A DNA stretch of 64,000 bases from Ginglymostoma cirratum (lineage: Eukaryota): the NCBI GenBank assembly GCA_024137785.1, contig JAHRHZ010000285.1:62001-126000 (forward strand), in the 5' to 3' direction. Below the pieces are notes generated by a model. That model was not told the origin of the DNA and searched no databases. It was given only the letters and a program-made list of their open reading frames with translations. This document shows positions 2,671-57,202 of this stretch, one piece after another. Made by a program: the position numbers and the translations under genes. How positions within the stretch are numbered: the first letter of the stretch is position 1; every line of letters begins with the position of its first letter.

Positions 2671-3762
2671 ATGGAAGAAGCAATTCTTTTATTGATTAAA
2701 GAGATTTACTACCCAATTCTTGCGATTATCAGTGTACCTGGTGAGCTATTGTAACATGCTTGTTGCAAGGACTTTTAACTGTCTCCATGCGCTTTTCACC
2801 TATTTGATAAAATAAGTGTATTTGTGTGTCACCCACATGATGAAACACTAATTATTTAATCTCTTTTCATTTCAGTGAACTTAATGATAATTGTGATACT
2901 TTCCCGTGGAAACTGTGGTCTTTCTAAATGTATCTCAATATACATGCTGGCTATGGCAACAGCCGATCTACTGGTCATAATAATCAATGTAATGGTGTAT
3001 CATATTTTCAGTTATAACTTTCCATTTTCATTTCTATACTATACTTCTGTGTGTAAATTAATTCTATATCTTGCTGCTGTCACACTAGATTTGTCAACCT
3101 GGTTCACTATTTTCTTCACATTTGACTGATTTGCTGTTATCTGCTGCTGGAAGTTTAAAGCAAGATATTGCACTGAGAGGACAGAAACTGCGGTTATAAC
3201 ATTTCTCTCTTTGTTGACCTTATTCAAGAACATCCCATGCTTCTTTGCTTTTAGTCACGAGAAAAAAATCGACAAGGTGTATTGGGGGTGCCAACCCAGT
3301 GGAGCTTTCTTTTCTTCATCCATTGGAGCAATATTAATCTGGTTTCACGCAACTTGGGGAGTTTGGCTTCCTTTTACTTTAATCGCTGTGTTTAATTTTT
3401 TGACAATTAGGCATATTTCATTGGCAAGTTGAGCCCGAAGGATACTCAAGTCTAACATAGCAGGGAGAAAGTGTAATGCAGAAATAGAGAATCGAAGGAA
3501 ATCGATCACGTTACTCTTCACTGTATCAGGAAGCTTCTTACTGCTGTGGCTGACAGCAATCGTTAGTTTTGTAACCACCAGAATAGTAAATGTTAATCCT
3601 TACAGAGGAGACCGCACAAACCCTGAATGTATTGCAACTGAAATAGGAACTATGTTGAAGTTTTTGAGTTCCTGTCCAAACACTTTTATTTACGTAGCAA
3701 CCCAGAAGATTTTCAGAGAAGAGTTGAAAAAGATGCTGCGATATCTCAGGCATTGGATTTAA
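2671..3762 (+). pseudogene. GPR139/GPR142-like class A GPCR paralog 1 (exon1 2671-2740, intron 2741-2875, exon2 2876-3762); two in-frame TGA stops
   Basis: Exon1 MEEAILLLIKEIYYPILAIISVP-g|GTGAG; acceptor ttcAG|tg at 2875. Exon2 reads in one frame: VNLMIIVILSRGNCGLSKCISIYMLAMATADLL...TFD*FAVICC...KNIP...AS*ARR...RRKSITLLFTVSGSFLLLW...LSSCPNTFIYVATQKIFREEL..TAA 3760-3762. TGA at 3127-3129 (DRF motif) and 3430-3432. Confidence 0.9.
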
Positions 3763-4408
3763 GGTTTGTCAAAACATTACGGCAATATCGTCTTGTGCGC
3801 AAATCCATCGGATTTAACGTTGTTATTATCGCAGTTTGAGGTGAAAATTTTTCATGTGCCAATTACGTTACTTTTTTCAAGTATCAGCAACTGGTGAAAA
3901 TATTATCATTGGGGCCTTCTTGGAGAGACATGAAAAAAAGTAGAATCGTAATCAGGAAAATGTCTGTTATTTAAGAAAATCTAGCACGTATTTCGGAAGA
4001 GTATTTGGCTTCTGAGTAACTTCCTGAAAGTTTTGTTTCATGTAACTTTTTTTAATCATGTAGATTGGTGGTATTAAAGTGGTGATCAAGAAATTCAGAA
4101 CTGTTTATGTAAAGTGAAACACAACTGACTTATCTTGAAATGTGGAGCTAATAGAATGATGAGCTCAAGAGCAACAGACGTACGAACTTAGCCCAATGAT
4201 AGGAATCTGAAAGTAGCTGTTGCACGTTACTACTTTTAGTTTTAGAACAAAGCAAAGTTTTAGAGTTATACCCAGTAGTTCGTAGTCTGACTGCAGTTTC
4301 TCACGGTACATACAAATGTTATCGACCTTCGTGTGCAGGATGCAATTTTCAATTCTGCAGACGATAAGAGAATGGGAATTGTTAGTAACTGTGAGCAATA
4401 TAGAGTCG

Positions 4409-5040
4409 TGAAGGAGCCCCTAGCCACCACCCAGCCACAAACCCCTGTGACACTACACACAAACACGTAGTCAGGGTATCCTAGGGGTAGGATGGAAAAT
4501 GAAGACACCACCCAGTAACTAAAACTTAAAGACTGCTCCGTTCTGACTCAGAAGCCAGGACGTGACGTTTAGTAACCACAGGATAGGGAACTGTGGAAAC
4601 GTCTATGTTGAGACTGTTTAATTTAGGCTGAGTAGTAATGAGTTGAAATAATACATGACTAGGAACACGAAGTTGGGAAACTTTAGATTTATGATATAGT
4701 GCATATTGCTGTAATTGCAACCTGCCTTTCCCTAATCTGAGAAGTCACGTAGGATAGATAGCAAAAAGCTGGGGCTCGCAGTATCCGTACGCTGTTATCT
4801 TCTCCGCAATCCGCTTCAATTAATGTATGTATGGCTACCTAAGTAATGACCTTGCCTTGCTAAAGCACAGTACAATCGCAGTTTATTTTAACTTGTTTAA
4901 TCAGAGCCTCCCTGACCGTCCTGTGAGACGGTACTTTGGAGCTCTCTTTGTTGTAATCGATTGCAAGCTTGAATAAAGAAGTGCTACCACTGAAGCAAAT
5001 CCTCGTGGTGTGTCTTTTAGAGTTCTAAAAGATCCCCACA
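4409..5040 (+). repeat. ERV 5' LTR (632 bp)
   Basis: TGAAGG...CCCCACA; AATAAA at 4972-4977. Aligns end to end with 10957-11596 (about 12% differences by manual count). Confidence 0.95.
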
Positions 5041-5043
5041 GAT

Positions 5044-5061
5044 TGGCGTTGCGAGCAGGGT
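5044..5061 (+). promoter_or_regulatory. ERV primer-binding site, tRNA-Ser-like
   Basis: TGGCGTTGCGAGCAGGGT lies 3 nt after the LTR. It matches at 16/18 the complement of the vertebrate tRNA-Ser(TGA) 3' end (TGGCGCAGCGAGCAGGGT, recalled from memory). Confidence 0.75.
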
Positions 5062-5272
5062 GCTCCGTCTGAGTCCACCAAGGTGCATCGACTATTGGGA
5101 TGATTATGTTATTTTCCCACTCTGTTATCTTAGAATAGGCATATCTCTAGTATTGACTCTGTAAATCACGGCACCTGACCGAAATTCCTTAACCGTGGTC
5201 AGACCTGGAAGGACCTGACTGCCGGGTAGCCCCCGGGTAATAAGTGCACAGTAAGTTTATTAATATGGCAAT

Positions 5273-5530
5273 GGACTGACACTTGATAGACAAGAATAGA
5301 GGTTTTAAGACGTCGACGGACTGACCCTTAATAAGCAAGAATAGAGCTATTAAGTGGTAGACGGGCTGAAACTTAATAATTAGAAAAACAAATCCATTAA
5401 GAGGTCGTTGGACTGACCCTTAAAAGGCAATAACAGAGTAATTAAGAGGTCGACGTACTGAAACTCAATAATTAGGAACAGCCATTCAGAGGTCGACCGA
5501 CTGACCTTTAATAGGCAGGGAAAAGAGCTG
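5273..5530 (+). repeat. Tandem array of ~43-47 bp units in ERV leader
   Basis: Units begin at 5273, 5318, 5363, 5410, 5455 and 5498, with shared core TTAAGAGGTCGACGGACTGA(C/A)(C/A)CTTAATA. Confidence 0.85.
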
Positions 5531-6479
5531 GGCTAACGGATAAGCATAGGTAGACGGACTTACCTAACAACAGGTCATGGCTAATGGAGAGGAAGGATGG
5601 GGTCCCGGAGGATCCATCCTGCAAACAGTATTCATAAGTAACAAAGAGGGAGAGAGAGCGAGACCGATCTCTGTGCTCGCTCACTGAATCTTGTAGATGA
5701 GTTAACTCTTTGTGGTCTGGTTTGAATGCACCTTTGTTTGTTGATTGCTAAATGTTGTCTTGTGCAACTTGTGTGCTTTTGTTTCCTAGAACTCGAGATT
5801 TGGGGATGCTTTGAAATTAGTTTGCGTTTTGGGAATGTATGGTGATTTAAATGCGTGGTGTGCCTGTGTAAGTATGGGTTATGTATGGTTAATGAGATGT
5901 CTGTTTAAGAAACTCTCAGGGGTTGTGCAAAGCAAAAGTCTATAATGAAATGTTGATTTAAAAGGTTAGTTCGTAAAGCTTAGTAAAAATGTATCTTTTA
6001 GAATTGGCTCTGTATTGCTTTTGGACTTTGGGTCAATTTTAATTTCAAAAATTACCATGTTTGGAATTTCACTTACTGGCCAGAAATGAACTTCTAAAAA
6101 CTGTTATAACACATGAGTATGTATTTAACTCCGGATGATAAGATTTGCTCGTTGTAAAGGTACCATGATGTGGAAGTATGCAAGTAATAGGAAATTTAGA
6201 ATCTTGGGAATGCAATTCTCTTTGAACAAAATTCTGATATGTTCTAAAATCTGCAAAAAGCTGATAGATGATTAGAAAAGGCAAACTTAACAGAGGAGGT
6301 GGTTCAATACTAATTGAACCATTCTGCTTGACATGAGATAATGGATGCTTTCTCAGAAATTTCAAGTCCATGTATGATTGTATTTTACCGCGACTGAGTG
6401 AAGTAATCTGTAGACAGAGAACTGTAGGATTTAAAAAACACACAAATTGACAAAGTACTCAACTTGGCAACGAAAGCAG

Positions 6480-8591
6480 AAAATAACCAAGACAATGATG
6501 AGAAAAAAGCAGCCGTTGTTAGAGGGTGTGGGTGACGGGACTCAACCAGCTCCCCTCAGCCAACAGATTGAAATAAAAATTGCAGATTGTGTGATCAGTG
6601 CTTGTAAATGTGTGTGCAAAAATACTGAAGATAGCATATTAGAAATTGAGTTGTTGGAACAATTTGGAGCTGTGACCAACATGCAAGAAGCAAAGATTAA
6701 ATGGGATTGCCAGCTTAACTTTGGAACGTCAAGGATTGCATGCTTCCTTAAGTGTATCTGTGCAACAAAAATTGGGTGGGATTGACACCCCAAGAATCCC
6801 TCCTAGACATTAGCAATGATGTGCCCCAAATTATTGAAAGACGTGGAAATGCACAACCACCTAAAAGGCAGTACCATATCAGGCCTGAAGCTGTTAAGGC
6901 AGTTAAAGAAATTATGAAAGATTTCGAGAAACAAGGAGAGAGATGTGATTTTATCCCCATCTTTGGACCTGGAAGAAGAAAAACAGGGTCGAGGTAAGGA
7001 AGAGCCATCAGGGGGCCAGATGTGAAATGCATGTTTGTAGATGGGGCACGAAAATATTCCGATGGTGAGTCCAAAACAGGGTGGGCCGTTGTTAATTTGA
7101 AAGGGGAGCTTTTAACAGGAGGGAGGAGAGAATGATGTAAGGATACTTTCAGTGTAATCCATGACGATATGATGGCATGGGCAAGGTGAAGTTATGTTAC
7201 TTCGAATGGTGGTGTAATCCAGCATAAGAACCTAATCAAGGATCTAGTGGCTGCAGCTACTGAACCAAAAGAGGCAGCAGTAATAAAAGTAAAAGCGCAC
7301 CGTAAGGATGCAACCCCCGAACAGGCCGGAAATGTGGCTGCAGACGAGCACGCCAGAAAGATGCTCGAAAACCCGCAAATCAGCATCATGAAATTGGCCA
7401 AGATACCACACCCCTCGCGGACGATATACACAGCATAGCTGACATACACCAGACCATGACTACAGCAGGAAAACAGGAATGGACGCAATTAGCGGCACAA
7501 CCGGGTTGGACAGTGTTTGGAGAATACCTTAAAAAGACGAAAGTAAGGTTATAGCTCCCCGCTGCATCCAAAACATATTGTTAGGAGTCCATCATGGTAT
7601 AGCACAGAACAGCCGCGAGAAAATTTTGACCCAACTCCTAAAACACTGGTGGTGGCCAGGGATAGGAAGGGACACAGCTAAACACTGTGGGCGGTGTATC
7701 CAATCCGCCCAAACCGAACATGGAAAATCCTGTAAAATAAGAATGGGGTGACAGCACGACCGAAAGGTCCCTGGGTAAAAATGCAGATGGATTTCTAGGA
7801 CTGTTACCTCAGAGCTAGGGAAAACTATACTGCCTGGTAAAAATCGACTAATTCACAAGATGGGTAGAAGCCTACCCCACCCGGGACTGTACAGCTGAAA
7901 GTTTGGCCCACCTTTTAGCCACTGAAATAATATCCCGCTGGGACGTCCCTCAGCAATTGGACTCAGACCAGGGACCATATTTTACCGAGCAATGTATAAA
8001 AGAAATTTGTAAAATGTTGACTGATCGCTCAGAGATTCCACATACCCTACCATCCCGAGAGCTCAGGTTTAGTCGAAAGAACCAACCAAACCCTGAAACA
8101 CGCCCTTACTAAAACCTGCTAGGGCAAGAGTGATAGATGGACGATGGTATTACCAGCAATTCTGATGTCTATGAGGACATCAGCGGACCGGGTGACAGGA
8201 CTCACCCCTTTTGAATTAATGACAGAACGGGCTTTAAAACGGCCCCAAGATCTGATCACGGGAGGGGCAGAGTTAATGAATACTTAAAAAGATCTGTGGA
8301 AGTACATGAGAGAGTTATGGGACAACGTAGACAATGTTATAGAGCAAGCTGGTATTCGACAGCAAGTACGTAACTGGGAACTCCCAAGACTCCCAAGACA
8401 TGGCTACGCCTCCCATTAAACCAGGAGACCGGGTCCTGGTAAAGATCATCCGTGCCAAAGTAGCATTAACCCGTAAATGGTCAGGACCACATGAGGAAAT
8501 TATAACAGGGAGTATTGGAATCCTCGTAAATGAAGCTGGTATAGGGAAGTGGCACCACCCTTCGCAACTGAAAATGTATTATGGAAGCTAA
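6480..8591 (+). pseudogene. pol: ERV pol remnant: protease C-half, RT N-terminus only, partial RNase H, integrase
   Basis: PR-like DSIL.ELLEQFG; RT start PPKRQYHIRPEAVKAVKEIM; RNase H CMFVDG...GWAVV and VIKVKAH...GNVAADEHAR; IN HH..WWPG..C..C, QMDF, FTRWVEAYP, LDSDQG, YHPESSGLVER, GPY/F-like WSGPH...WHHPSQLK. Multiple stops and frameshifts. Confidence 0.9.
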
Positions 8592-8661
8592 ATTATAACC
8601 ATTGTATACTTTTTTGGGACAAGGCTTTGTATTCCCCCCATATTAACATTATATGTTACAG

Positions 8662-10940
8662 ATGCTTGAGCACCTTCCTATGGATCGTGACCGCCTTCGC
8701 CGTTACAGAGCTCCAATGTCACGGCAAGCGTCAACAAGCTGGTCACTGTATTGATAATAAAACCACCCGATAGGATACAGCCTCTGAATTCTACTTCTTG
8801 GGGCCCCAAGATGACTGTAGCGATGGTATCTTATGACTGCAGCCTACTGAAATTCTGGACCTAATTTGTGTCTCTGGACGACCACCACTCAGGTGCTGGG
8901 ACGGGACTAACTGTTATTATGAAGTGTTGAACTATGACTCTTTGACAGCTCGGAGCGGGGGAACAGTTTTGCGCATTTATCATAATGAGGATGGACATGT
9001 GCTCCTACTTCACGCAGACAGAACTTGGATTTATTGTACGATTTTATATAGACCTGACACTGGAACTCGGTAATGCTTTTATATGGAAAAATAAGACATG
9101 AGGCCAAGAGAAACCCGTATGGTTTAGTACTGACAGTAACAATTGTAGCCTCACGTGCTGGCAATGCGAGAGCCAGCAACCCCTCAGACATAGACGAACC
9201 CCAGACGACCCCGACGTAGTTGCAGGACACACACCTTCTACCCCTTAAGGAGTGGGAGAAGATCAACTACACCCAGACCACCCACCACATCACTATTACC
9301 AACAAAACCCCCCACATGTAGCGACACCCAGACACCGCTTAACACATCAATCATGTTACATCCTTGGGGCGTGCTTTTACAAACTCCCACATGGAAAAAT
9401 GTTGAACTTATTATCCAGCTCTTCCCACAGCTGCCCAGTACCCGCACTAAATCCATATCAGAAGCTTTTAAGCTCCTATTCACCGGGGCTGCCGATGGAT
9501 CGCCCCAGCTATGATTGAGAACCATTTACCGGTTTGTCAAGAGCCATTGGCACAAGCGAGACATTGTCACACAGGCAGAGGCTGGGGCAGCATTCAGAAT
9601 GGCAGCAGTGAATGCTGCAGGCGAATCCACTCTCCAGGAAGAAATCGACACCCTCAAGGCTAATCTAAAGATTTTGCTTCTCCAGAGTGGACATAACAAC
9701 TTGCAGACCACTAAATTGACTAAGCAAGCTAATGGCCTATTTTTGACGAGCCTCCAGATTGGAGTGAGAATAGAACAAACATTGAGTAAATTGATGGACA
9801 TCCTACAAAACCAAACCGAAGAGGTCAAGCATGCACCTATCTGCGCACTAACAGCAGCCAACTCCCTGACAACCTGGAGGCTTGGATTGGAAGCCCTCAC
9901 CAAGAACCAGTTATCTGAATGGATAGCCGATGACGACCTCCGAAACATGAGTATTAATGCCTTCCCTCACACTCGCGACCTCATTGAAGTATACACCCAC
10001 GCAGACCCAGAATGGGCTTCTCTCAATATGGGCCCTGGTGTACGATAATGTCACTCATCCAATCTATCAGACGCAGGATGTCGGACTCTACCAAAACATC
10101 ACAATTCATGAACTAGCCTCGAAACCTGAATATGTCACACAGGGAGATGGGATGTTCTACGCGGTAAACCTGAACTGGTGCACTAAATCAAAACACCTTC
10201 TTCTGTACTACCCTACAGGAATCGACGAAGAATGTGTGGCATACATCACTGGGACCTCTCTTGTCCTATGGTCCCGAACGATGCAGAATCCCAGTATGGA
10301 CAAGTTGGGGATCAGACTTATGTGACATCCATCAACATGACCTACTTTGTCGGAAACCGTCATTGCTCACTGCAAAACCACGCGGTTTCTCTTCACTAAC
10401 CTGACCAAAGAAATACGGATCGGGAACCATACTGTCAGACGGCCACCAAGGCAGGACATAACGTCTTTTGCAGCAAGCCTAAATCTCACCTGCTCAACCG
10501 GCATATTACAGCTGCCAGATGAGATGCCACCGGAGCTCCCCCGATCCACGAGAATCGGCAGCAGCTAATACAGGTCGAACAACACATCATTGAAGAGTTC
10601 TGCAAGCAGCAGAAGAAAGATGAACGCGACATCAACGAAACAAACAAGGTTCTCAGGCAGACGAATATATTTTTCCGCATTTGAAACTGGAGGATGAATG
10701 TCCAGGTGCACACTTGGATCTGGATTGCCTCACGTATGGCTGTCGTTGCACAGTGCCTCATACTCTTGATCTTATTGATCGACACTTGTTGCCTTAGAAG
10801 AATCCTACGTAAGCAAAGAAGATGTGAAGAAATGGAACCCCTCTTGAAACGATTCAAATACCCAAGACCGCAAGGGCACACTGCAATAGCACTCCAGGTG
10901 GTATCACACTATAAATGTCCCTTGGCACATGTGGCCATGG
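8662..10940 (+). pseudogene. env: ERV env remnant
   Basis: Splice-acceptor-like gttacAG at 8661 and signal-like LSTFLWIVTAFAV. Cleavage site (W/R)HKR|DIVTQAEAGAAFRMAAVNAA ends at 9559. It is followed by a heptad region, a Cys/N-glycan-rich segment, and TM anchor WIWIASRMAVVAQCLILLILLI then RRILRKQRR. Stops and frameshifts are present. Confidence 0.8.
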
Positions 10941-10943
10941 GCC

Positions 10944-10955
10944 GAAAGGGGGGAA
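10944..10955 (+). promoter_or_regulatory. ERV polypurine tract
   Basis: GAAAGGGGGGAA immediately before the 3' LTR TG at 10957. Confidence 0.9.
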
Positions 10956-10956
10956 C

Positions 10957-11596
10957 TGAAGAAACCTCTCGCCTCCACCCAGCCACAAACCACTATGACA
11001 CTACACACAAGCACGTAGTCAGGGTATCCTAGGAGGAGGATGGAAGATGAAGAAACCACCCCAGTAATTAAAACTTAAAGACTGCTCCGTTCTGACTTAG
11101 AACCCAGGCCTTGATGGTTAGGAACCACAGGATAGGGAATTGTGGAATACGTGTATGTTGAGACTGTTTAATTTAGGCTGAGTAGTAATGAGTTAAAATA
11201 ATACATGACTAGGAGCACGAAGTAGGGAAACTTTAGCTTTATGAGACAGTACATATCGCTGTAACTGCAACCTGGCTTTCCCTAGTCTGAGAAGTCACGG
11301 AGGATAGACAGCAAAAAGCTGGGGCTCAAGCATCTGTACACTCTTATCTTCACCACTTCCTCTTCAATTAATCTATGTCTGCTTGCCTAAGTAATGAACT
11401 TGCCTTGCTGAAACACAGTACAATTGCAGTTTGTTTTAATTTGTTTAATCAGAGCCCCCCTGACCGTTCTGTCAGACGGTGTCTTGGAGCTCTCCCTGCT
11501 GTAATCGGTTGCAAGCTTGAATAAAGAAGTGTTACCGCTGAAGCAAGACTCTGGTCCTCGTGGTGTGTCTTTTAGTGTTCAAAAAGACCCCCTACA
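10957..11596 (+). repeat. ERV 3' LTR (640 bp)
   Basis: TGAAGA...CCCTACA followed by TSD AGTCG; AATAAA 11520-11525. Confidence 0.95.
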
Positions 11597-15690: not shown

Positions 15691-15753
15691 CAGGATGACA
15701 GAAAGCTAGAAAGGCTTATTGATTGTGATTTTTACAGAAATTTGAAAAATTAT

Positions 15754-21261: not shown

Positions 21262-22415
21262 CATTGACAAGGTCACTCACGGCAGACTTCTACAGAAGAT
21301 AAAGTCCCATTGGGTCAGAGGTGAGTTGCAAGATGAATTTAGAAAAAAAAACTAACTCGTTCATAGAAGAGAGAAGGTAGCAGCGGAAGGGTGCATTTTT
21401 GAATGGAGGGCTATGACTAGTGGCGTTCCTCAGGGATCAGTTGGATCCTTTGTTATTTGGAATATACATACATGATTTGGAGGAAAATGTCAATGGTTTG
21501 ATTCGTAACCTTGTGGATGACACAAAGGTTGGTGTAATTGCAGACAGTGATCAGGACCATCAGAGCATACAGCTGGATACCGATCAATTGGTGATTTGGG
21601 CAGAGAGATGGCAGATTCAGTTTAATCCAGAAAAATGTGAACTAATGCATTTCGGAAGGTCTAATTCAGATGGAAAATATGCAGTAAATGGCAGACCCCT
21701 TAAGAGTACTGATAGGCAGAGCGATCTGGGTGCACAGGTACACAGGTCACTGAAAGTGGCAAGGCAGGTGGAAAAGGTAATCAACAAGCCATATGGCATG
21801 CTTGCCTTCATCGGCCGGCACATTGAGTTTAAAACTTGACAGGTAATGTTGCAGGTTTTTGGAACCTTAGTTAGGCCTCGTTTGGAATATTGTGTTCAAT
21901 TCTGGTCGCCACACTACCAGAAGGATGTGATGGCTTTGGAGAGGGTACAGAAGAGATTTACCAGGGTGTTGCCTGGTATGAAGGGCATTAGCTATAAGGA
22001 GAAGTTGGAGAAACTGAAACGACAGAAGTTGAGGGGCGACCAAATAGAGGACTACAAGATTATGAAGGGCATGGACAGAGTGGACAGTCAGAAACTTTTT
22101 TCCCAGTGGAGAGGAAGCAGTCACTAGGGGGCATAGGATTAAGGTGCGTGGGGCAAAGTTTAAAGGTTATGCACGAGGCCAGTTTTTTCTTACACAGAGG
22201 GATGTGGGTGCCTGGAACTCACTGCCGGGGGAGGTAGTGGAAGCGGGTATGATGGTGAATTTTAAAGGCGTCTTGACAAATACATGAATAGAATGGGAAT
22301 GGAGAGATACAGTCCCCGGAAGGGTTGGAGGTTTTAGTTGTGACAGGCAGCATGTCAGTGCAGGTTTTGAGGGTCGAAGGGTCTGTTCCTGTGCTATAAT
22401 TTTCGTTGTTCTTTG
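21262..22415 (+). mobile_element. CR1 LINE ORF2 RT 3' half
   Basis: [45 protein letters not shown], and a 3' UTR GAAGGGTCTGTTCCTGTGCT. Confidence 0.9.
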
Positions 22416-39406: not shown

Positions 39407-39586
39407 TGGAAAAGATCAGCAGGTCTGGCAGCATCTGTGAAGAAAAAATCAGAGTTAACTTTTTGGGTCTGGTGACCGTTCCTCAGAACCGAGGAAGACT
39501 GTTCTGAGGAATGGTCACTGTACCCGAAACGTAAACTCTGGCTTCTTTTTCTTCACAGATGCTGCCAGGCATGCTGAGCATTTCCA
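39407..39586. repeat. Penelope-terminus-derived palindrome (two ~83-bp inverted arms) with hammerhead-like core
   Basis: Arm 39407-39489 is reverse-complementary to 39501-39586. CTGAGGA-stem-GAAAC at 39504-39530. Confidence 0.75.
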
Positions 39587-42500
39587 ACAATTTCTGGGGG
39601 GTTTTTGCCTCTGAATCATTTCTTGTGCTGTACATCTTCTCTATGTAAATAAGCCCCTGGATACAATATTTCATTGAACATTCTGAAGAGATCATAAAAT
39701 CAAATGGGTGTTTTTCTGTCCAAACTTATGTATGGTTTTCTTGTTTATTTTCCTTTCACATAGTTAATGTATTGATGATGATCATCCTGCACCGGAAACT
39801 GTGCAGTCTTTCAAATTGTATCACTCGCTACCTCTTGGCTATGGCTGCGGCAGATTTACTCATGGTTATAATCGATCTGGTATTGAGACACATTCCGATT
39901 GTTTATCTGGAGCAGTTTACTTTCATCAGGTCCATCCCCTTGTGCAATATCCATGCTGTTCTGCTGTACGCAGCAACTGACTGTTCTGTCTGGTTCACTG
40001 TTACTTTCACCTTTGATCGATTCATGGCAATTTATTGCCAAAACCTGAAAAAAAACTACACTGAAAAAACTGTGACCGTGATTTTAGCAACAGTAACTGT
40101 ATTGAGCTGTTCAAAAAACATTACCTGGTATTTTATACTAACAGGTTGGTATCGGCTGTGGAATGAACCATGGTTTTGTGAAGGAACAGACAATGTTCAG
40201 TTTTCTCTTTTCTGGGATCAATCGAATTCCTTCATTACATTCTAATCCCTGGGATACCATTCGTTCTGATCCTGCTGCTCAATGCTTTAACCATCAGACA
40301 CATTGTCGTGACTAGCAAAGCCCGGAAGAGACAGCATGTTCACAACGCTGGGGCAAGAAACAAAGACTCAGAGATGGATAGCAGAAGGAAATCCAGCATT
40401 TTTTTTTTATTTCGGCAAATTTCATCCTCGGGCAGTGTTAACAGTGTATTCCATACGTGACCGGATGTGGGATTTAGGATACCGAGTTTTGTTTCTTGAT
40501 TATTTTGTGATGGAACTCAGCTTCATGCTGCAGCTCCTGAGTTGTTCCACGAACACATGTATTTATGTGGTGACACAAGCTAAATTCAGAAATCAGTTCA
40601 AAAAGTTGCTGAAACATCCCTTCACTGCAATTCTTCAAGACATTGAATAAAGAGAAGAAACGAATCACTAAAAAAATTGCACTGGTTTCTCAATTTATTT
40701 CACGTCTCCTGCAGGGCAGGCCAATTGCCATGGTGGCTACAATGAGAAACAGCTCAGAAATCATGATGTGGGAGTTGGGGGCAATGCACGTTACACACCA
40801 TTAGGAGCGGTAGAGACAGTGGCTATTTCCAAGACCGATAGAGAGTTGGATGACTCCTTATTCACATCTCTTGCTTTGAAATTTGGCATCTGCTTTTTAT
40901 GGCGTCGAATTCCTGGGGTAAGACAGCATTTGTACTCTGCTGTGACAATGGATTAATTTGCTGTTCTGCATTAATGCAGTTGTTTTTTTCTCAGATGGCA
41001 ATCGTCTTTGAAACTCCTAACCCATTATGTTGTGGACATTATGCACAACACGTGCTCTTCAGATTTAATATTCATAATTTAGTTTAGCATTCAGAACTCA
41101 AACACGGCATTTAAGTAGTGAAGGCACCAGGCAACTCACAATTTTTTTTTCGGCTCCTGCTAGCATTGGACAGGCTCCATGTCCTCTTCTTGGGCATAGA
41201 GTTCGTCTATGAATGAGCTGCCTTGCAGTTCAATCCGACGTCTAATGGGACAGGAGATCTCCAACTTCATGTTTCTGCCTCAAAACCTGTCGTGATCTGT
41301 GGGGAAAATTGCGTGCTCACAAATTAGCCGTCTCAATCCGAGCCTTATATTTAGAGATGTTCTCCCCAATCCCTTACCTCTCTGACTGCTGCCTGGGCCT
41401 CTACCTCCCGCTTCTGTGTGAACCCCAATCCCCTGCTGCATGACCTCTCAATCGCCTTTACTCCTTTAGTTTGGCGTTCTTTTGAAGCTTCAGCCTTCTG
41501 TGCAAACTCAACCTTCTGTTCCCTTCTGGCTCCAACTCCAGCACATGCTTCCTCTCTGCCTCCCTGTTACACTCCACTCTATCTCACTCAGCCAGACCTC
41601 TTTTGCATCAAACTCCAGCTCCATATCCAGGTTTTCGCTCTGCTCCCGTGCCAACCTATTCACTTTCTCCATCTCGGTGACTTCATCATGGTTCACTTCA
41701 TCGTCCTCAGCTTCGATCTTTTCTTCCACCTCGATTTACAGCTCCTGCCACATGTAATCCTCTTGACCTGATTGTTCCACTCCTTCCATCGCTACCTGTT
41801 GATCCTTCTGTGTATAAACCTCTTTCCACTTTACATGGAACTCTTCCTCATTCTGCACCTGTTACTTCTTCTGCCCCTCCTCATCTGTTCTGATTCAAGG
41901 GTCTTTTCTTCCTCAACGACATTCTTTGCCTCAGCGCCCTACTGCGCCTTATCTTCTTGTGCAGTTTCAACCCGCTGCTCTCTGTCAATCTCCTGCTGTT
42001 GTTTTTTTTTCTCTCCCCCCCCACCACCCCCGCAGTACAGTATAGCTCTACTGTGAATTCTGATTCTGCAAGACGTTGAATTCTGCGCAATTTGAACTCT
42101 TCCTCATCCGCATTTTTACGGGTTTTTCGTTGTTCCACCTCAACCACAATACCAGCAATGAACTCGTGTTTTTTTTTTTTCTGAACTGAATCAACGCCCC
42201 TCGACCTCTTTGATCTGGACAGTCTCTACCCTCTGTTGGACATCAGTCTAAGTGCTCTCCTGCACACCATCCCGATTGCCCAGATCCTTTGTCTTGAACC
42301 ACTTGACTGTGTCTGCTGAAACATTACCCATAATCCAGGTAACGAGAGTACTTTAGACTTTTTTTTTCTATAATGACAACGAAACAGCCATCTAAGCACA
42401 AATGTAGTGGGCTGTGCTGCTTTGGCGAAGGCATATATGGAAGGCAAATCCTTCTGTATTCTAGCAACGTCAGAATTCCTCTCCATCTGTTGACCTCTCT

Positions 42501-45294: not shown

Positions 45295-48200
45295 TTTTCA
45301 GCGGCGGGAGTCCGGGAGGAGGCGCGAGGGCAGCGTGGGAAAGTAAGCTTTTCCTTGAAAACATACCTCGTGAATAGGCGAAGTGCACGCTGAGCAGGAG
45401 CGGATACGGGATGGCTGAGTAAGTGAGGTAATATACTTGGGCGGTTGCTTTACCCGAAACACTACAAAGGTTGTGTCTCCCACCCAGCCTCTTCCTCTAA
45501 ACAAGAAAGATTCTGGGCGCCGATTTGGTAAGTTACGAGTTTTTATTTTCCAATAGTCTGTTTTTGTGAATTCAGAACAATGGGAATGGATGTTAGGGCA
45601 TTTGCATGCTCCTGCTGTAGAATGTGGGAGGTAAGGGTCACCACTAGTGTCCCTGCTGACTTCCTCTACGGGAAGAGCACCCAACTCCAGCTCCTCAGAA
45701 ACCGCGTTAGGGAACTGGAGCTGGAGCTGGAGCTGGACGAATTTCGGATCATTCGGGAGGCTGAGGGAGTGATTGAGAGAAGTTACAGTTCGGTAGTCAC
45801 ACCTCAGGTACAGGAAAAAGGTAGATAGGTTACAGTCAGGGGACGGAAAGAGAAGAGGCAGACTGTGCAGGGATCCCCTTTGGACGTTCCCCTCAATAAC
45901 AAGTATACCATTTCGGATAATGTTGAGGGGGACGAATTACCAGGGGTAAGCCACGGGGTACAGGTCGCTGGCGCAGAGTCTGTCCCTGTTGCTCAGACGG
46001 GAAGAGGGGTGAGGGGCAGTGCATTAGTCATTGGGGACTCCATAGTTAGGGGGACAGATAGGAGATTCTGTGGGAATGAGAGATACTCGCAGTCGGTGTG
46101 TTGCCCCCCAGGAGTCAGGGTCGGTGATGTCTCGGATCGTATTTTCGGGATCCTTAAGGGGGACGGGGAGTAACCCCAAGTCGTGGTCCACACAGACACC
46201 AACGACATAGGTAGGAAAAGGGATGGGGATGTAAAGCAGAAATTCAAGGAGCTAGGGTGGAAGCTTAGAGCGAGAACAAGCAGAGTTGTTATCCCTGGTT
46301 TGTTACCCGTGCCACGTGCTGGCGAGGCGACGAATAGGGAGAGACAGCAGTTGAACACGTGACTTCAGGGATGGTGCAGGAGGGAGGGATTCAGATACCT
46401 GGATAATTTGGGCTCATTCTGGGGTAGGTGGGACCTCTACAGACTGAATGGTCTGCACCTGAACCAGAGGGGTACCAATATCCTGGGGGGAAATTTGCTA
46501 ATGCTCTTCCGGGGGGGTTTAAACTAATTCAGCAGGGAGATGGGAACCTGAATTGTAGCTCCAGTGTACAGGAGTTTGAGAGTAGTGAGGTCATGAATAA
46601 GGTTTCAAGGTCGCAGAAGTGTACTGGCAGGCAGGAAGATGGTTTGAAGTGTGTCTCATTCAATGCCAGGAGCATCCGGAATCAGGTGGGTGAACTTGCA
46701 TGGTTTGGTATCTGGGACTTCGATGTTGTGGCCATTTCGGAGACATGGATAGAGCAGGGACAGGAATGGTTGTTGCACGTTCCGGGGTTTAGATGTTTCA
46801 GTAAGATCAGGGAAGGTAGTAAAAGAGGGGGAGGTGTGACATTGTTAGTCAAGGATAATATTACGATGGTAGAAAGGACGTTTGATGAGAACTCGTCTAC
46901 TGTGGTAATATGGGCTGAGGTTAGAAACAGGAAAGGTGAGGTCACCCTGTTGGGACTTTCCTACAGGCCTCCGAATAGCTCCAGAGATGTAGAGGAAAGG
47001 ATAGCAAAGATGATTCTGGAGAGGAGCGAAAGTAACAGTGTAGTTGTTATGGGGAAGCTTTAACTCTCCAAATATTGACTGGGAAATCTATAGTTCGAGT
47101 ACTTTAGATGGGTCAGTTTTTGTCCAATGCGTGCAGGAGGGTTTCCTGACATCGTGTGCAGATAGGCCAACAAGAGGCGAGGCCACATTGGATTTGGTCC
47201 TGGGTAATGAACCAGGCCAGGTGTTGGATTTGGAGATAGCTGAGCACTTTGGTGATGGTGACCACAATTCGGTTACGTTTACTTTAGCAATGTTCAGGGA
47301 CAGGTATATACCGCAGGGCAAGATTTATAGCTGGGGAAAGGCAATTATGAGACGATTAGGCAAGACTTAGGATGCATAGGATGGGAAAAGGAACTGCAGG
47401 GGCTGGGCATAATTGAAATGTGGAGCTTGTTCAAGGAACAGATACTGCGTGTGCTTGATAAATATGTACCTGTCAGGCAGGGAGGAAGTGGTCGAGTGAG
47501 GGAACCGTCGTTTTCTAAAGAAGTTGAATCTCTTGTCAAGAGGAACAAGGAGGCTTATGTAAAGATAAGGCATGGAGGCTCAGTTAGGGCACTTCAGAGT
47601 TACAAGTTAGCCAGGAAGGACCTAAAGAGAGAGCTAAGAAGAGCCAGGAGGGTACATGAGAAAGGTAGGATCAAGGAAAACCCTAAAGCTTTCTATAGGT
47701 ATTTCAGGAATAAAAGAATGACTAGAGTAAGATTAGGGCCAGTCAAAGACAGTGGTGGGAAGTTGTGCATGGAGTCCGAAAAGATAGGAGAGGTGCTGAA
47801 TGAATGTTTTTCGTCAGTATTCACAAAGGAAAAAGGCAATGTTATCGAGCAGAATACTGAGATACAGAGTATTAGACTAGACGGGATTGAGTTTCATAAG
47901 GAAGAAGTGTGAGCAATTCTGGAAAGTGCGAAAATAGATAAGTCCCCTGGGCCGGATGGGATCAATCCTAGGAATGTCTGGGAAGCTAGGGAGGGGATTG
48001 CAGAGCCTTTGGCTTTGATCTTTATGTCGTCATTTCCTACAGGAATAGTGCCAGAAGACTGGAGGATAGCAAATGCTGGCTCCTTGTTCGAGAAGGGGAG
48101 TAGAGATAACCTTAGTAATTACAGACCAGTGAGTCTTACTTCGGTTGTGGGTAAAGTGTTGGAAAGGATTATAAGAGACAGGATTTATAATCATCTAGAA

Positions 48201-49492
48201 AGGAATAATTTGATTAGGGATAGTCAACACGGTTTTGTGAAGGGTAGGTCGCGCCTCACAAACCTTATTGAGTTCTTTGAGAAGGTGACTAAACAGGTGG
48301 ATGATGGTAAATCGATTGATGTGGTGTATATAGATTTCAGTAAAGCATTTGATAAAGTTCCCCATTGTAGACTATTGCAGAAAATTCAGAGGCATGGGAT
48401 TGAGGGTGATTTAATGGTTTGGATCGGAAATTGGCTAGCTGGAAGAAGACAGAGGGTGGTGATTGATGGGAAATGTTCATCCTGGAGTTCAGTTACTAGT
48501 GGTGTACCGCAAGGATCTGTTTTGGGGCCAGCATCGTTCGTCATTTTTATAAATGACCTGGATAAGGGCGTAGAAGGATGAGTTAGTAAATTTGCGGATG
48601 ACACTAAAGTTGGTACAGTTGTGGATAGTGCAGAAGGATGTTACAGATTACAGAGGGACATGGATAAGCTGCAGAGCTGGGATGAGAGGTGGCAAATGGC
48701 GTTTAATGCGGAAAAGTGTGAGGTGAAACGCTTTGGAAGGAGTAACAGTCATACAGAGTACTGGGCTAATTGTAAGATTCTTGGTAGTGTGGACGAGCAG
48801 ACAGATCTTGGTGTCCATGTGCATAGATCCCTGAAAGTTGCCACCCAGGTTGATAGGGTTGTTAAGAAGGCGTACGGTGTGTCAGGTTTTATTGGTAGAG
48901 GGATTGAGTTTCAGAGCTATGAGGTCATGTTGCAGCTGTACAAAACTCTGGTGTGGCCGCACTTGGAGTATTGCGTACAGTTCTGTTCGCCACATTATAG
49001 GAAGGATGTGAAAACATTGGAAAAGATGCAGAGGAGATTTACCAGAATGTTGCCTGGTATGAAGGGAAGGTCTTATGAGGAAAGGCTGAGGGACTTGAGG
49101 CTGTTTTAGTTAGAGAGAATAAGGTTAAGAGGTGACTTAATAGAGACGTACAAGATGATCAGAGGACTGGATAGGGTGGACAGTGAGAGCCTTTTTCCTC
49201 GGATGGCGATGGCTCGCATGAAGGGACATAGCTTTAAATTGATGGGAGATAGATATAGGACAGATGTCAGAGGTCGATTCTTCACTCAGAGAGTAGTAAG
49301 GGCGTGGAATGCCCTGCCTGCAACAATAGTAGACTCCCCAACTTTAAGGGCATTTAAATGGTCATTGGATAATTATATGGATGATAATGGAATAGTGTAG
49401 GTTAGATGGGCTTCAGATTGGTTTCACAGGCCAGCGCAACATCAAGGGCTGAAGGGCCTATACTGCGCTGTAATGGTCTATGTTCTATGATC
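45295..49492 (+). mobile_element. Near full-length CR1 (HER1-like) LINE; ORF1 (Zn finger/leucine zipper + SGNH esterase) ~45580-46528, ORF2 (APE + RT) ~46590-49400; inactivated
   Basis: ORF1 CSCCRMWEV...LRNRVRELELEL, VIGDSIVRG, DGLHL-like. ORF2 [44 protein letters not shown]. Tail TCTATGTTCTATG. Several stops and frameshifts (e.g. 45826, 47910, 48579, 49107). Confidence 0.95.
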
Positions 49493-52400
49493 TTTGCCAG
49501 GAGTACAGGAGTTGGGACTAATATTGCGGTAGTCCAGGCTGTTGGTGTGTTCTCTTCTGGAGTACCGTATCCAGTGATGTTCGCTCCTTTATAGGAAGGA
49601 TACCATCAAGCTGGAGAGGGTTCAGAACCGATTTACCACGATGAGTTGGGAATGGAGTGTTTGAGATACAAGGAGAGGCTGGATAGGCATGGACGAATTT
49701 CTTTCTGACTGACTTCTGAAGAAATGGAAAAAACGTTTCAGTGGTCTGAGGAGAGTAAGAGGGAATTTGTCAAAATGAAAACTGCGTTACACTGTCCAAG
49801 TGATAACAACCCCCATCTGCACAAAACAGTTCAAGGTTCTTTTTTAAATAAATAAGTGCCTGATTATTCAGTGATGGCATGCACAGGATGTGGTCAGGGA
49901 TGTTCATCTCTTGCAGTTGAGTTTCTGATGTTGTGTGACTATGAGTGTTTGTTTTCTGAAGGCAAGTGTGATGAGGTGTGTGGTGCGGGGTATTGAGTTG
50001 GGGATAAGGCATGCGAGATGTCGAGCGCGAACTATTGTGTTTGTGATTGTGTGTGTGATGTGATTTGGATTGGGAGGCCCTTCAGTTTAGTTGTGGGTGT
50101 GTTGTATTGTGGAACAATGCATTATTTCATCCAGTCAATTGACCCACCATCTGTGGTTTAGGTCCATGATCTGTTAACGCTCAGCATTCCTCTTATTATT
50201 ATCATGTTGGAAAAAAATACTCCTCACGTTGCCAATAGATCACTATACACTTTTCTTCAATCTGTGCCATCATTGGAGGCAGTTTCTACTTGATAGATTT
50301 ATTTAGAGTAATGTGAAATCTTCGTTTTTTTAACCCTCGTCGTGATCTTTCAAATTTGTAGTTGAAATTACTCAGATTGTAGAAAAGTCGTGAAGGTATC
50401 TTGTTGTACCCCTTGCAGTCTAAAAAAAAGGGGTTGGGGAAAGAAAAAAAACGCATTGATTGGGAAAACACGTGGGACTCAAGACGAGAGAACCGTGACC
50501 AAACAAGAACCAAAAGTATGAAAGTGAGCAACAGCGACAGAAGTGTCAAATTGCTCGTGTAAGAATCACGAGCTGAGGAAGGTTAGTCAAACATTGTCAT
50601 TAACTCCAAACAGATCAGAAAATGAATGTTTTGGAGATGTATTTAAGAAAATATTGAAATGCTGCGCAAACAGTAATTTTCTTTAGGAAAGCAATAAAGA
50701 TTGTCAAAATGTCTGTCAGTACGTTTAAAGTTATGTTGTATTGGCGTCATTATTTTGGAGTAAAATTATAACTAATTAATTTGTTGTTTTCTTTGTCGCT
50801 TTTTTTTCGATGAACGAACTCTAGGTCACGTGGAGAGTGACAAAACCAAAAGAAGCTCTCGAAGGTTCCCCTCGTGCATAAGTACGAAATGTCTTTGAAC
50901 GTATAATACCGTCTGCATCAACAGACAGAAGGCACCTTCAGAGGAGATGGCACAGGCCCCAATAATAAACATTGGGAATGGTTTCTATTATTCTCTCGTA
51001 CTTGTTGGTATATCAGGTGAGATATAACAATTTTTTATATATTGTCAATAATATATTTAGTTTAACATTTGAATAATCCAAGTCGTGTCTTTATTTCACC
51101 GAACCTGATTTCTCAGCACTTTCATATTCATTCAAGGAAAAATAGTGTCTTTTTTTGCCCCAATGACGCTGCTGTACAATAGAATCCAGTGAAATTTTAA
51201 TTGTCCTCCATTTTCCACGTTCTATTTTACCATCATGTCTGCGAGTGCCCGATCTATATTGGGTCTCAATGTATTAAAAAAATCATTGCACCGTCCATGT
51301 TTCTGCAATTGGGTTCAGTCTTTGAAACATCCAAGCTATCTGAGCTTGTCATGATTTGAGCGATCAGTCGTTTTGTATTACATCCATGCTGTTAATGGTG
51401 GCAGTGCCTTGAGATTCCACAGAAAATTTCTTTCAAACAGCCAAGGTATATTGCCATGTCTACCTACATCACATTACATGAAGATCCTTTGATGAATTTA
51501 CTTAGCTAACAACACACACGGTAGTGTTTCCACATTTACCTTAAAGGGAAATGCCGTCCGCTTTATGATACTGTCATGGACTAGATAAGGCATTGACTAC
51601 TAACGCTGCAATAACTTATTTTGATTACTTGTTCCTACTCATTAGGATTTCTCATGGCCCATGTAAATTTAGCTGCATTTCCGAAAGTACCAGAATTATA
51701 AAGTTTTGGAAAGAAAGGCCTTCATTTCGTGTTCAAAAATGACACGATAGGAGCAATCATCAACTTCCAAAAAGCGTAGAAGACAGACTACTGGTACAGG
51801 AAGGCAAGATTTAGTGCAAATCAGTGCGAATCAATTAAAGTGGAAATAACGGGATATGGCGCATATAGAATAACTAAAGTCTGGAGGCACACGTAGAGGC
51901 GATGATACCCGTAAATGACGGGCGCTGCTTTGTACTGTATGGGTTAGAACTTTCTATCTGTTAATGTATAGCAACAGTACACATACAGCAAAGTGAGTGT
52001 GTACCACAGCGCCCCCAATAATTACCTGTAGGTACTGAACAATGCTTTAGTTATCAGAACGTTAATTACTCGCGACGGAATTGAAAAAGAAATTCAACTG
52101 CTCTTGTAACATCACTGATAGCATCTCTCTCTGGTCAGTGGTAACCCGTAACATGTCAATTTTGATTTATTTATTGAAATGTGCGTTTGATTGCAAAATA
52201 CAGTGTAGATTGTTGTATAGTGTCGCCATACACCGGCACCTTCTTAAAATAGAGAAAAATTATGGCTTCTTGTTAAGCGCTCAGCCACGGGCCTGGGGCC
52301 CACAGCCACGGATCCTCTTGCCGGGGCTGCCACCGCGAGTCCTCGCCGATGCAGTAACCGCCGAGGTAGGAGAAAGAAAAGAACAGCGGACGGAGTGGAT

Positions 52401-52839
52401 GCCTTATTTTGCCGGCACATCATGCACGTGTTGAATTGTTTTATTTGCGCGTTTGAGCGCGCATGTTGCTTTGTAATGTCAGGTGGTTTTTGCGCGGCTC
52501 CTGTGTGCTGGGACATTTCTTTGCCATTTTAAACGTGCCAGCCTCGAACTCTTCCTCGTTCATCGACATGTGGAACTGAATTGCTTCAGTATGTGAGGAG
52601 TCTCAAATTGTGGCAAATACTGAGCGATTAAACAAAATCTGACTTCTGAACTCATGATGCAGCGAAAGTTATTAATGAGGAAGGTGAAAGTAGTTGTTCC
52701 AAGGACATGACATTGTTGAAAAGATCTCCTGTGGAAAGGACTCAGGTCCATCTTTGAAGAAGTTGATGAGGAATTATCGACGCTGATGGAAACTTAAAAC
52801 ATGCTCTGACGTGTGAAGGGTGATGACCACCTAACTCTT

Positions 52840-54272: not shown

Positions 54273-54344
54273 ATTATTCCTTTTAATTATTTAGAAACCC
54301 ACGCACCAGGCAGTGTTTTTCTTAAAAGTAAACATTATTAGATT

Positions 54345-55000
54345 CATAGCGTCAAAGTCAGGTACAACAGAGCGAAAGGCCTCTGGCCTATCGCATCTGA
54401 ACCATGAAAAGAAACAACCACCTTTCTATTCTAATATCATATTTAGCATCTTCTGATAGATTTTTATTTTTCATCTTTTCTACTCTAAACGCTCTACCTC
54501 AACAATAAATTGATGTCCACTGATCGTTGATCACTCCATCATGTCGAAACATTTCTTCCTAACTACGCTCCTCATAATTTGTTTTAGATCTCAATCACTT
54601 CCCCACTCAATCTCCTCTGTTCAAAGGAACGCAATAACTCCAACTTTGAAGCCCAGGCAACATCCGATACACATCTACACCAATAACATACTGATTCCGT
54701 CATTTAGATTCCAAAACTACACACAACACTGCAGCTGTGCCCTAACCAACGTTTTATACTGATTCAGCATGGCCACCCTCCTCTTAAACTTTATGCCTTG
54801 GCTAATGAAGTCTAAGAATATACCTTGCTAACCACATTTTCAGCTATGCTGATAGGTTAAGGAAACGGTGGACATGCATACCAAGTTCCCTGCGAATCAA
54901 GATCCTGCACTTCATCATCATTTCCATTGCCTTGTTGTCCTGAACAAGTACATTACCATATATTTATCCAGATTTAATTTCATTCGAAGACTGAAAACTC
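54345..55000 (-). mobile_element. Old CR1-type 3' fragment, reverse
   Basis: Reverse tail AGATTCATAG...AAAGGCCTCTGGCC and decayed ORF2-end words. Confidence 0.5.
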
Positions 55001-55674
55001 ATGAGTGTTTCTTTATGCTGCACAATATCAAACGATTTGTGATTTTAAGAAAAATCACCCTTACTTCCCCATTGAATTCCAGATCTGTTGCACAAATTTA
55101 GGCCGATGTTCCAATGAGGTGGGTGTCACGTTAGTCCTGGGTGTAAGTTAACTGAGCACACGGGACAATTTATTGTTCAGTATCTGATGGCTACCTGATG
55201 GCACTTTCCACGCTTTTGTTCATAACCGAGCGAGCCCCATGGGACAGCAATTGGTTGTCTTGGATTTTATATATGCCTTGTGGGCATGAATACTAGCGCA
55301 TTTTCTACATTTTCGGGTAGACACCTACATTTTTATCTAGGCTGGGAAAAAAAAATTGTCTTTAGCCGCAGTTTCTTGCGCAGGATTAAAACTCCAGAAT
55401 GCGGTCACGGTCCATGGCCTGTCCAATATTCGTTTCTTTTTGACTGAATTTTAATGATGTATGGAATGAATCAAGAGGTGACCGAGACAATTTATTAAAA
55501 CTGGGAAGTCTTTCTGAATTGGTAGGACAATTACACATCATATGATAGACAGCGCCAAATCAAGGAATTATTCCCAGATGCTGACATGAAAACTATCTAA
55601 GAAGTACATGCATTTTGTTTTGGGGGTGGGGGAGGTGGGAGGGGATATTTGCAGAGTTACCTGGTCGGACAGGA

Positions 55675-55810
55675 AATAAAGATAGTGGGAACTGCCGATG
55701 CTGGAGAATCTGAGGTAACAAGGTGTAGAGCTGGATGAACACAACAGGCCGAGCAGCATCAGAGAAGCAGGAAAGCTGACGTTTTGGGTCGAGACCCTTC
55801 TTCATAAAAT
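55675..55810 (-). repeat. Penelope-terminus-derived short repeat
   Basis: GGAACTGCCGATGCTGGAGAATCTGAG...GCAGCATC...GACGTTTTGGGTCGAGACCCTTCTTCAT; related to 24250-24330, 39370-39590 and 42690-42790. Confidence 0.6.
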
Positions 55811-57202
55811 GGACTGGAGATAGATGTGTGATTGTAGGAGAGGGGCAACTGCTGAGGCCTGTGTTTGAAGACGGAGACTATACAGATGAAATCACTGTAA
55901 TTAGGGAAGCTTTCATGGATCACTGGAGGTGTGAGGAGATCTGTGGGAGATGTAGAGAATCCAAAAATTTCCTAATTATTGAGGGGGCTGTGTAATGAAC
56001 CACTTCTAATATCAATGAATCAGATTTATTGATTCAGATTTAATCCGTCATACATTTATTTCTGGCATTAATTGTATCCTTTTTGTTCCAGCCAATATTG
56101 TCACTCTACTGACAATTCGACTCAGGAATTGTGGCCTCGCCCAGAGCACCACAATGTACCTAATATCAATGACCACAAGTGATCTCCTGGTCCTCGTTTT
56201 TCACGCCCTTGTCAATTGAATTTTAAGCTGTCGCTTTCCACAGCTATTTGATTGTTACACCTTAGCCTGTCGCCTCAACACCATTACAACGGCTGTGGTG
56301 ATCGATTTTTCTGTCTGGTTAACAGTATCTTTCACTTTCGACCTATTCATATCCATCTGTTTCCAGAGTCTCAGAAGAAGCTACTGTACTCCGAAGTCCG
56401 CAGCTCTGGTCATCGGGGTGATTTACTTTGTCAGTAATGTGAGAAACATTCCCTATTACTTCAGCAATATCCCGTTCCACGTGCACAATAATGCGCAGAT
56501 CGGCTGCAAGGCCAATCCCAGCATTGACACAGCTCCTGCCTGGAGAGCCTTTTACTGGGTCCAAGTGGTTTTAACTCCTTTGGCTCCCTATGTCGCTGTG
56601 GCTTTATTGAATCTCCTGATGGTGAGACACATACTCATTGCAAGCCGGGTCTGTCGAGGATTCCGAGGATATGGTGGTGGATCGCAGGACCCTGAGATGC
56701 AAAGTCGGCGAAGAGCCCTCGTTTTCCCTTTTGCCGCCTCAGCGAGTTTCATATTGCTGTGGATGCCCATGGTGGGACTGCTCATGTTCTCACGTATCAC
56801 TGAAACCTATACTTATCGCAGCTTTCATGAGCCATTTGCAATTGTCAATGAAACCCTCAAGATGCTCAGTGTTCTGAACTGGAGCACCACCATCTGCATG
56901 TACGCTCTTACTCAATCTAAATTCAGGGCAGAGCTGAGCACGGCAGTGCGAAAGTTTACCAGACGATTTGGTAAATTAGCTACAGTGTAAAATTGAGCAA
57001 ATTGTAGCCTCTCATCCTGTTTATAAAATCCCCATGAAATAATTGGATACATGTAAACTAATTTTGTGCAGCAAGGTGCGCTGCAGATTACCTCTTCATT
57101 GTTGAAATCTGTCAATACCGCTCCTTCGTTGTTGTAAGGCATCTATGAAAACATTAATGCAGCACCAAGATAGTTAATCACAAATAACATAGCATTTTCA
57201 AT

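Follow-up and report, generated by a model that had tools for sequence, protein, structure and literature searches.

The window analysed here, 64,000 nucleotides of the Ginglymostoma cirratum genome (assembly GCA_024137785.1, contig JAHRHZ010000285.1, positions 62,001 to 126,000, forward strand), carries three class A (rhodopsin-like) G protein-coupled receptor (GPCR) genes, g1, g2 and g3, which are ordinary pseudogenes of a large receptor family with about 600 or more genes in this genome. The family is not an expansion of GPR139 or GPR142 but, on evidence of moderate strength, a sister lineage standing beside a non-mammalian single-copy orphan receptor and amphioxus receptors. Judged from sequence features, we regard it as an even call whether these 600 or more chondrichthyan receptors form a chemosensory, probably olfactory, repertoire with predicted peptide-sized ligands.

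All three window genes lie on the plus strand, consist of two exons and have a phase-1 intron directly before the Asn of transmembrane helix 1 (TM1). An earlier sequence-only reading of the window had described three same-strand paralogs with a common intron position and first exons of 23, 59 and 23 codons, and each of these features was recovered (Table 1). Its statement that the three are disabled in different ways holds for g2, which alone is interrupted by frameshifts, but not for g1 and g3, which are alike in having a TGA in place of Arg. Both TGA codons of g1 correspond to Arg in its relatives, and the one at 3127 replaces the DRF Arg. The second exon of g1 shares 61% identity with that of the intact locus L033 (L-numbers denote loci and G000 C-numbers contigs of the same genome). 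Compared with the intact paralog L002, g2 has a 1-base deletion at about 40213, 4-base deletions at about 40402 and 40429 and an in-frame codon loss at about 40050. Pairwise identities among g1, g2 and g3 were 25–36%; g2 was placed in the wider clade containing the positively selected subfamily described below, and g3 in a deep-branching sub-lineage also present in skates and rays. Pfam 7tm_1 was the sole domain matched, in three of eight window pieces (E 4e-9 to 0.009, one above the curated cut-off), with no match in these pieces to PF13853, the canonical olfactory receptor (OR) domain. An alternative first exon for g3 at 55239 was rejected because of an internal stop and a score falling far short of that of the exon at 50947. 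Assembly error is an unlikely source of the lesions, given several independent lesions per gene and the broken state of close g1 and g3 paralogs as well. The complete 181,623-base contig holds five family members, of which one is intact and four are broken. On another contig, G000 C188, close paralogs of g1, g2 and g3 (L002, L032, L056, L063 and L065) occur in similar order and spacing, which points to block duplication; the two g3-like copies on that contig are broken as well.

The size of the family was estimated from the DNA encoding TM3, for which an exact motif had 262 copies genome-wide against none in the control, rising to 608 against 9 when two mismatches were allowed. This looser pattern recovered 93 of 105 loci from the protein search (a set that includes repeats and the window genes), so that about 600 copies is a floor and 650–800 is the estimate. 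In three protein searches of the genome, first-look candidates numbered 970, 1221 and 1113, and all of those scored (150, 133 and 132, respectively) matched with E < 1e-47. Haplotigs are unlikely to have inflated the count, since the nearest paralogs of g1, g2 and g3 reach 78–88% identity. Of the 262 exact motif copies, the first 100 were sampled; their exon 2 frame was whole in 62, broken in 37 and unsettled in one (58 whole under a stricter rule), a sample that covers exon 2 and not exon 1; the commonest first exon in the family has 23 codons. The sequence-only reading had proposed a large lineage-specific family under birth-and-death and had named a small number of paralogs genome-wide as the outcome that would count against it. 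The motif counts, together with about 38% of sampled copies broken, bear out the former and contradict the latter, and a large, clustered, birth-and-death family, as in vertebrate chemoreceptor repertoires, is present. Its statement that sharks have few canonical OR genes also agrees with this genome, in which only three strong OR matches were found, with 17 of 96 candidates matching PF13853 at E 0.001; none of these 17 overlaps a listed family locus. Class C receptors gave 79 matches among 107 candidates, pieces included.

Relatives were found across the cartilaginous fishes, as the earlier reading had suspected. With an intact paralog as query, 1770 of 2467 candidate proteins matched, and among the best 120 matches 118 were named, all from sharks and nearly all automatically labelled "probable GPR139". 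A g3-like query matched 149 of 1103 candidates, and the named ones among its best 120 came from sharks, skates, rays and the chimaera Callorhinchus. The closest named relatives among these matches were from Rhincodon (97%) and Stegostoma (93%). As the range was judged from the best 120 matches per query, an absence from bony vertebrates is not proven by it.

The proteins have the anatomy of class A receptors. Among 135 intact members, the class A anchor residues were conserved almost throughout (N1.50 in 134, D2.50 in 128, R3.50 in 132, P5.50 in 131 and Y7.53 in 134), as were the cysteines of the disulfide between TM3 and extracellular loop 2 (ECL2), with Cys3.25 in 131 and the ECL2 Cys in 132, and the prolines of TM6 and TM7 were mostly altered (P6.50 kept in 14 and P7.50 in 12). 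The Stegostoma orthologue of L002, modelled with AlphaFold (mean confidence, pLDDT, 87), showed seven long helices and an ECL2 hairpin. All 48 Foldseek matches listed were class A receptors, among which opioid, GPR139 and neurotensin receptors scored alike and no closest receptor was singled out. Generic residue numbers were derived from sequence anchors, and the pocket list follows general class A knowledge rather than model coordinates. The Trp/Phe site of GPR139 is formed by F3x33, H5x43, W6x48 and N7x38 (PMC5430874, excerpt), and the corresponding residues were present in 10 (F), 70 (H), 129 (W) and 12 (N) of the 135 members. Of the amino-acid or peptide ligands suggested by the sequence-only reading, amino acids are accordingly the weaker half, two of the four site residues being mostly lost, and peptide-sized ligands are predicted to fit better than free amino acids. 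In the positively selected subfamily, D2.57, R2.61, H3.28 and D3.37 are near-invariant in Ginglymostoma, Heterodontus and Heptranchias; deep-pocket residues differ between subfamilies.

The true GPR139 (L061/L092) and GPR142 (L093) were found as separate single matches in the same genome, along with two more divergent single-copy genes, L094 and L099. Two trees were built, a quick one of 79 rows and a careful one of 39 rows, in which the receptor family formed one clade (support 100/100), joined by L099 and L094 (97/93) and next by two amphioxus receptors (98/96), with GPR139 and GPR142 apart from the family (100/99). A topology constrained to unite the family with GPR139 and GPR142 was rejected (approximately unbiased test, p-AU 0.0202), although long branches make this evidence of moderate strength. 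Thus, of the "GPR139-like" expansion first proposed, the distinct lineage-specific array is real and the membership of GPR139/142 is not upheld. Mean identity over the 135 intact members was 22% to GPR139, 20% to GPR142 and 27% to L099, compared with 49% within the family. GPR139 and GPR142 (PDB 7VUG and 9M42) do resemble the family, GPR139 being the best solved-structure match by sequence (E 3e-14), in the phase-1 intron with its acceptor at the same place before the TM1 Asn (also seen in L099), the lack of the NPxxY proline and W6.48; they differ in forming their own clade with a single copy each, in F3.33, R6.51 and N7.39, which are mostly replaced in the family, and in lacking the disulfide cysteines that the family keeps. 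GPR139 and GPR142 have been grouped with protostome peptide receptors (PMC8514136, excerpt). Atlas feature neighbours carry PF10324 in 16–74% of their members, a link to the protostome MIP/sex-peptide, FMRFamide and proctolin receptors and the nematode srw receptors. The srw receptors of nematodes may themselves represent a chemoreceptor expansion of the PF10324 clade. In the tree with GPR139, GPR142 and invertebrate peptide receptors, which had been suggested as a check, the family was monophyletic and the protostome representatives fell outside the clade of family, singletons and amphioxus receptors, so the shark expansion is independent.

L099 belongs to an orphan type also labelled "probable GPR139" (Latimeria XP_005988539.1, Acipenser XP_034767065.2), with 115 matches from sharks, coelacanth, ray-finned fishes, amphibians and reptiles, none of them named as a mammal or bird. 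It shares with the family the same intron, a first exon of 23–24 codons, a Cys in intracellular loop 1 and the TM3–ECL2 disulfide; unlike the family with its hundreds of copies, it has been kept as a single copy from sharks to teleosts, amphibians and reptiles. Unannotated GPR210A/B sets have been described beside GPR139/142 in coelacanth, gar and other fishes, sharks being unmentioned in the part available (PMC6504862, excerpt), and the L099-type orphan is possibly one of these sets. Two database models fuse L099 (contig G000 C271) with TMEM183A, which suggests that the two are neighbours; L094 lies on contig G000 C39.

Positive selection was analysed in 37 paralogs (81% mean identity) forming a large subfamily in the wider clade of g2, with g2 and L002 themselves just outside the cut-off, using our own codon-model code, which reproduces the M0 likelihood of IQ-TREE. 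Model M2a was strongly favoured over M1a (likelihood-ratio statistic 802), with a nonsynonymous to synonymous rate ratio (omega) of 7.96 at 6% of sites. Fifteen of the 17 positively selected sites were extracellular, a compartment comprising 53 of the 288 positions (p=1.6e-10). By region, omega was 1.3 in extracellular positions, 0.37 in helices, 0.52 in intracellular positions and 0.10 at 23 deep-pocket sites, the region lists having been fixed after the entropy table was seen. In a split-half check, sites defined in one half gave omega 3.1–5.9 in the other in all four tests. The same positions vary in other sharks: 15 of the 17 selected sites were among the 17 most variable positions in Heterodontus (62 members) and 12 in Heptranchias (28 members), whose members represent largely separate expansions, the 62 from Heterodontus needing three label changes on the tree. 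In a tree-free check, which assumes a shared synonymous rate, sites defined in Heterodontus or Heptranchias gave omega 7–11 in 18 disjoint pairs. The two remaining selected sites lie in intracellular loop 3 (exon 2 positions 199 and 206, clade L003–L030) and are unexplained by a ligand model.

Alignment of upstream regions on the TATA box revealed an element of the type TAATTR-NN-TCYCTGGAG, a homeodomain site followed by an EBF-like site, some 11–13 bases upstream of TATA. A matrix trained on 25 family genes gave a median score of 9.6 in 21 held-out genes, compared with a median of 4.3 over 477 windows of background (p=8e-7). Genome-wide, the combined pattern of element and TATA had eight matches at seven places compared with two in the control, and at six of the seven places a family exon 1 followed directly (judged by score at five and by eye at one); among the five places outside the training set, four were family promoters. 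In the window, the element was found in front of g1 and g2 (Table 1) but not in the 400 bases upstream of g3 exon 1. The L099 promoter scored 5.5; for GPR139, GPR142 and L094, a search over 10 kb recovered no exon 1. Three OR loci without defined 5' ends gave no usable positive control. The element is genuine, and part of the family has conserved it. Its order and orientation are those of a mouse Lhx2/Ebf composite (PMC5608512, excerpt), and by this analogy Lhx2 and EBF may bind it. As a separate observation, four promoters in a V2R cluster of the same genome (G000 C288, 20001–220000, L272–L291) have conserved upstream blocks in common, some of which carry TAATTG and, at a distance from it, an EBF-like half site.

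Taken together, these features would be consistent with the following mechanism. An intact gene would encode a seven-helix receptor with a short N-terminus and the TM3–ECL2 disulfide. The deep pocket of the largest subfamily, which is polar, charged and fixed (D2.57, R2.61, H3.28, D3.37, E5.39, H5.42 and E7.36), would hold an anchor shared by the ligands, while the fast-changing rim (ECL1, ECL2 and the tops of TM6 and TM7) would read their variable part; since the deep pocket differs between subfamilies, ligand classes would differ as well. Through the homeodomain and EBF-like element just 5' of the TATA box, neurons of the Lhx2/EBF type would express the receptor, and the DRF motif would couple it to a Go/TRPC2 cascade. 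Tandem and block duplication would add copies, and nonsense changes and deletions would remove them, as in the window. Olfactory neurons of the catshark are almost all microvillous cells of the Go/TRPC2 type, and those marked by the V2R co-receptor v2r1 number 5.94 per mm of lamella (PMC10116579, excerpt), which may leave many olfactory neurons without a known receptor. The family resembles the vertebrate OR, TAAR, V1R/ORA and V2R/OlfC repertoires in its large clustered organization, many pseudogenes, short N-termini and, on partial evidence, homeodomain and EBF-like promoter sites. It differs from them in not being homologous at the family level, in its coding intron and in that the selected subfamily diversifies the rim rather than the deep pocket. 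More tentatively, and with rather less than even confidence, the family may be the main olfactory repertoire of cartilaginous fishes and an additional family of olfactory receptors in vertebrates: several hundred genes, about ten times the V2R set, under Lhx2/EBF-type control and derived from a peptide-receptor lineage that is single-copy in bony vertebrates and lost in mammals, its largest branch reading variable peptides from prey, conspecifics or parasites by means of the fixed anchor pocket and the selected rim.

Several observations weigh against an olfactory role. Selection on the ligand face, for which the sequence-only reading proposed a test, is found on the rim of one subfamily (omega about 8) but not in its deep pocket, nor in the g1 subfamily (26 genes), where no positive selection was detected and omega was flat at 0.36–0.38; the rim pattern is not family-wide. 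An omega of about 8 at exposed positions is no less typical of host–pathogen conflict, and EBF and homeodomain factors also act outside the nose. Only nine of the 21 held-out promoters scored above the 95th percentile of background, and 15 of 36 test genes, including 10 of the 11 from the selected subfamily, had been dropped as their exon 1 was not found; the sole gene of that subfamily scored by the matrix reached 0.5. No enrichment was seen for O/E and homeodomain patterns set in advance (4/23, 0/23 and 17/23, against shuffle maxima of 5, 1 and 19), enrichment being confined to the family-trained matrix, and four V2R promoters of the same genome lacked the element (scores 5.4–10.1). The spacer is 2 bases in the shark element and 1 base in the mouse Sfaktiria Lhx2/Ebf composite probe (PMC5608512, excerpt). 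Finally, no GPCR is reported among the top 50 genes of a catshark olfactory library in the available part of PMC11979771, although sparse expression would look alike. Sequencing runs X4 and X5 were set aside as a source of RNA evidence, and no inference was drawn from them, since their paralog contigs probably represent reduced-representation DNA (one is unspliced for about 40 bases into the intron, and stop places are shared).

Among other explanations, an FPR-like repertoire of innate immune or barrier tissues (leukocytes, gill, gut or skin) that senses microbial or parasite peptides is unlikely. Such a role would suit very strong selection confined to an exposed rim that encircles an unchanging anchor pocket, together with the repeated species-level expansions illustrated by the Heterodontus members, and EBF1 is also a B-cell factor. 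It fits less well with a homeodomain site paired with an EBF-like site, an arrangement resembling olfactory control, with the lack of kinship to FPR or chemokine receptors (the best solved-structure match being GPR139) or with several hundred intact genes, a number exceeding known immune GPCR sets. Expression in non-olfactory sensory cells, such as trigeminal or dorsal-root neurons, taste buds or solitary chemosensory cells of the skin, with irritants or prey peptides as ligands, is in our judgment improbable. The precedent is the mammalian MRGPR family. The shark receptors form a class A family that is clustered, evolves fast and combines short N-termini with changed prolines in TM6 and TM7; EBF and homeodomain factors occur broadly across sensory neurons, and the V2R promoters without the element also agree with this explanation, but MRGPR-type sets number tens of genes, not hundreds. 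That the family keeps the role of GPR139 and GPR142, as a sensor of aromatic amino acids or of endogenous peptides within the gut, pancreas or brain, appears highly improbable: the common phase-1 intron, W6.48 in nearly all members, H5.42 in about half and the GPR139 structure match are set against the separate presence of true GPR139 and GPR142 at 20–22% identity, the loss of F3.33 and N7.39 from most members, a disulfide lacking in GPR139/142 and the hundreds of diversifying receptors, which endogenous ligands do not call for. Least credible, and largely refuted by selection, is a copy number that is a mere by-product of duplication-prone, repeat-rich regions with few copies that matter, for although many sampled copies and four of the five on the window's contig are broken and neighbouring genes are duplicated as blocks elsewhere, the low omega of helices and deep pocket, the omega above 1 on the rim, the lineages also present in skates and rays and the conserved promoter element all speak against it.

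An olfactory role for the family would bear on the contrast between the large olfactory organs of sharks and the very few olfactory receptor genes reported for them. In the catshark these comprise 34 V2R genes and four to nine in each other family (PMC10116579, excerpt), and sharks are described as poor in GPCRs generally (PMC8455134, excerpt). No description of the expansion was found in the literature searched, in which subscription journals were thinly covered, and the available part of PMC10620051 makes no mention of GPCRs; the family genes, machine-annotated at NCBI, are apparently catalogued but not studied. If the family is expressed in the nose, the picture of few shark receptors would be overturned, several hundred intact receptors having been held under one automatic name. 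If it is immune or skin-based, it would still be a very large and strongly selected receptor repertoire of which no description was found.

Table 1. Positions of receptor exons, promoter elements and repeats in the window.
Feature	Position	Strand	Remarks
g1 homeodomain/EBF-like element	2555–2573	+	Weak match, score 11.4 (background 95th percentile 10.7); followed by TATA-like 2582–2589
g1 exon 1	2671–2740	+	23 codons + 1 base, GT donor; layout as in intact relatives L033–L035
g1 exon 2 (TM1 to helix 8), pseudogene	2876–3762	+	TGA at 3127–3129 and 3430–3432
LTR retroelement, direct repeats	4409–4998 and 10957–11546		87–92% alike
45-base tandem array within LTR retroelement	5273–5517
Integrase-core fragment in LTR retroelement	7852–8109		rve, E 7e-6, below cut-off
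g2 homeodomain/EBF-like element	34521–34539	+	Score 17.2, the highest on both strands of the window
g2 exon 1	34688–34865	+	59 codons + 1 base; matches exon 1 of intact paralog L002
g2 exon 2, pseudogene	39764–40650	+	Three deletions that shift the frame and loss of one codon in frame, relative to L002
LINE copy	45300–49400	+	Reverse-transcriptase and endonuclease matches
g3 exon 1	50947–51016	+	23 codons + 1 base, open frame; resembles L064 exon 1
g3 exon 2, pseudogene	56092–56990	+	TGA at 56217–56219; DRF Arg to Leu at 56343
LINE copy	61480–63720	-	Reverse-transcriptase match

The remainder of the window includes repeats. A degenerate long terminal repeat (LTR) retroelement with broken reading frames lies between g1 and g2 (4409–11546), and in addition to the two long interspersed element (LINE) copies listed in Table 1, shorter LINE-like fragments occur near 21400 and 52900.

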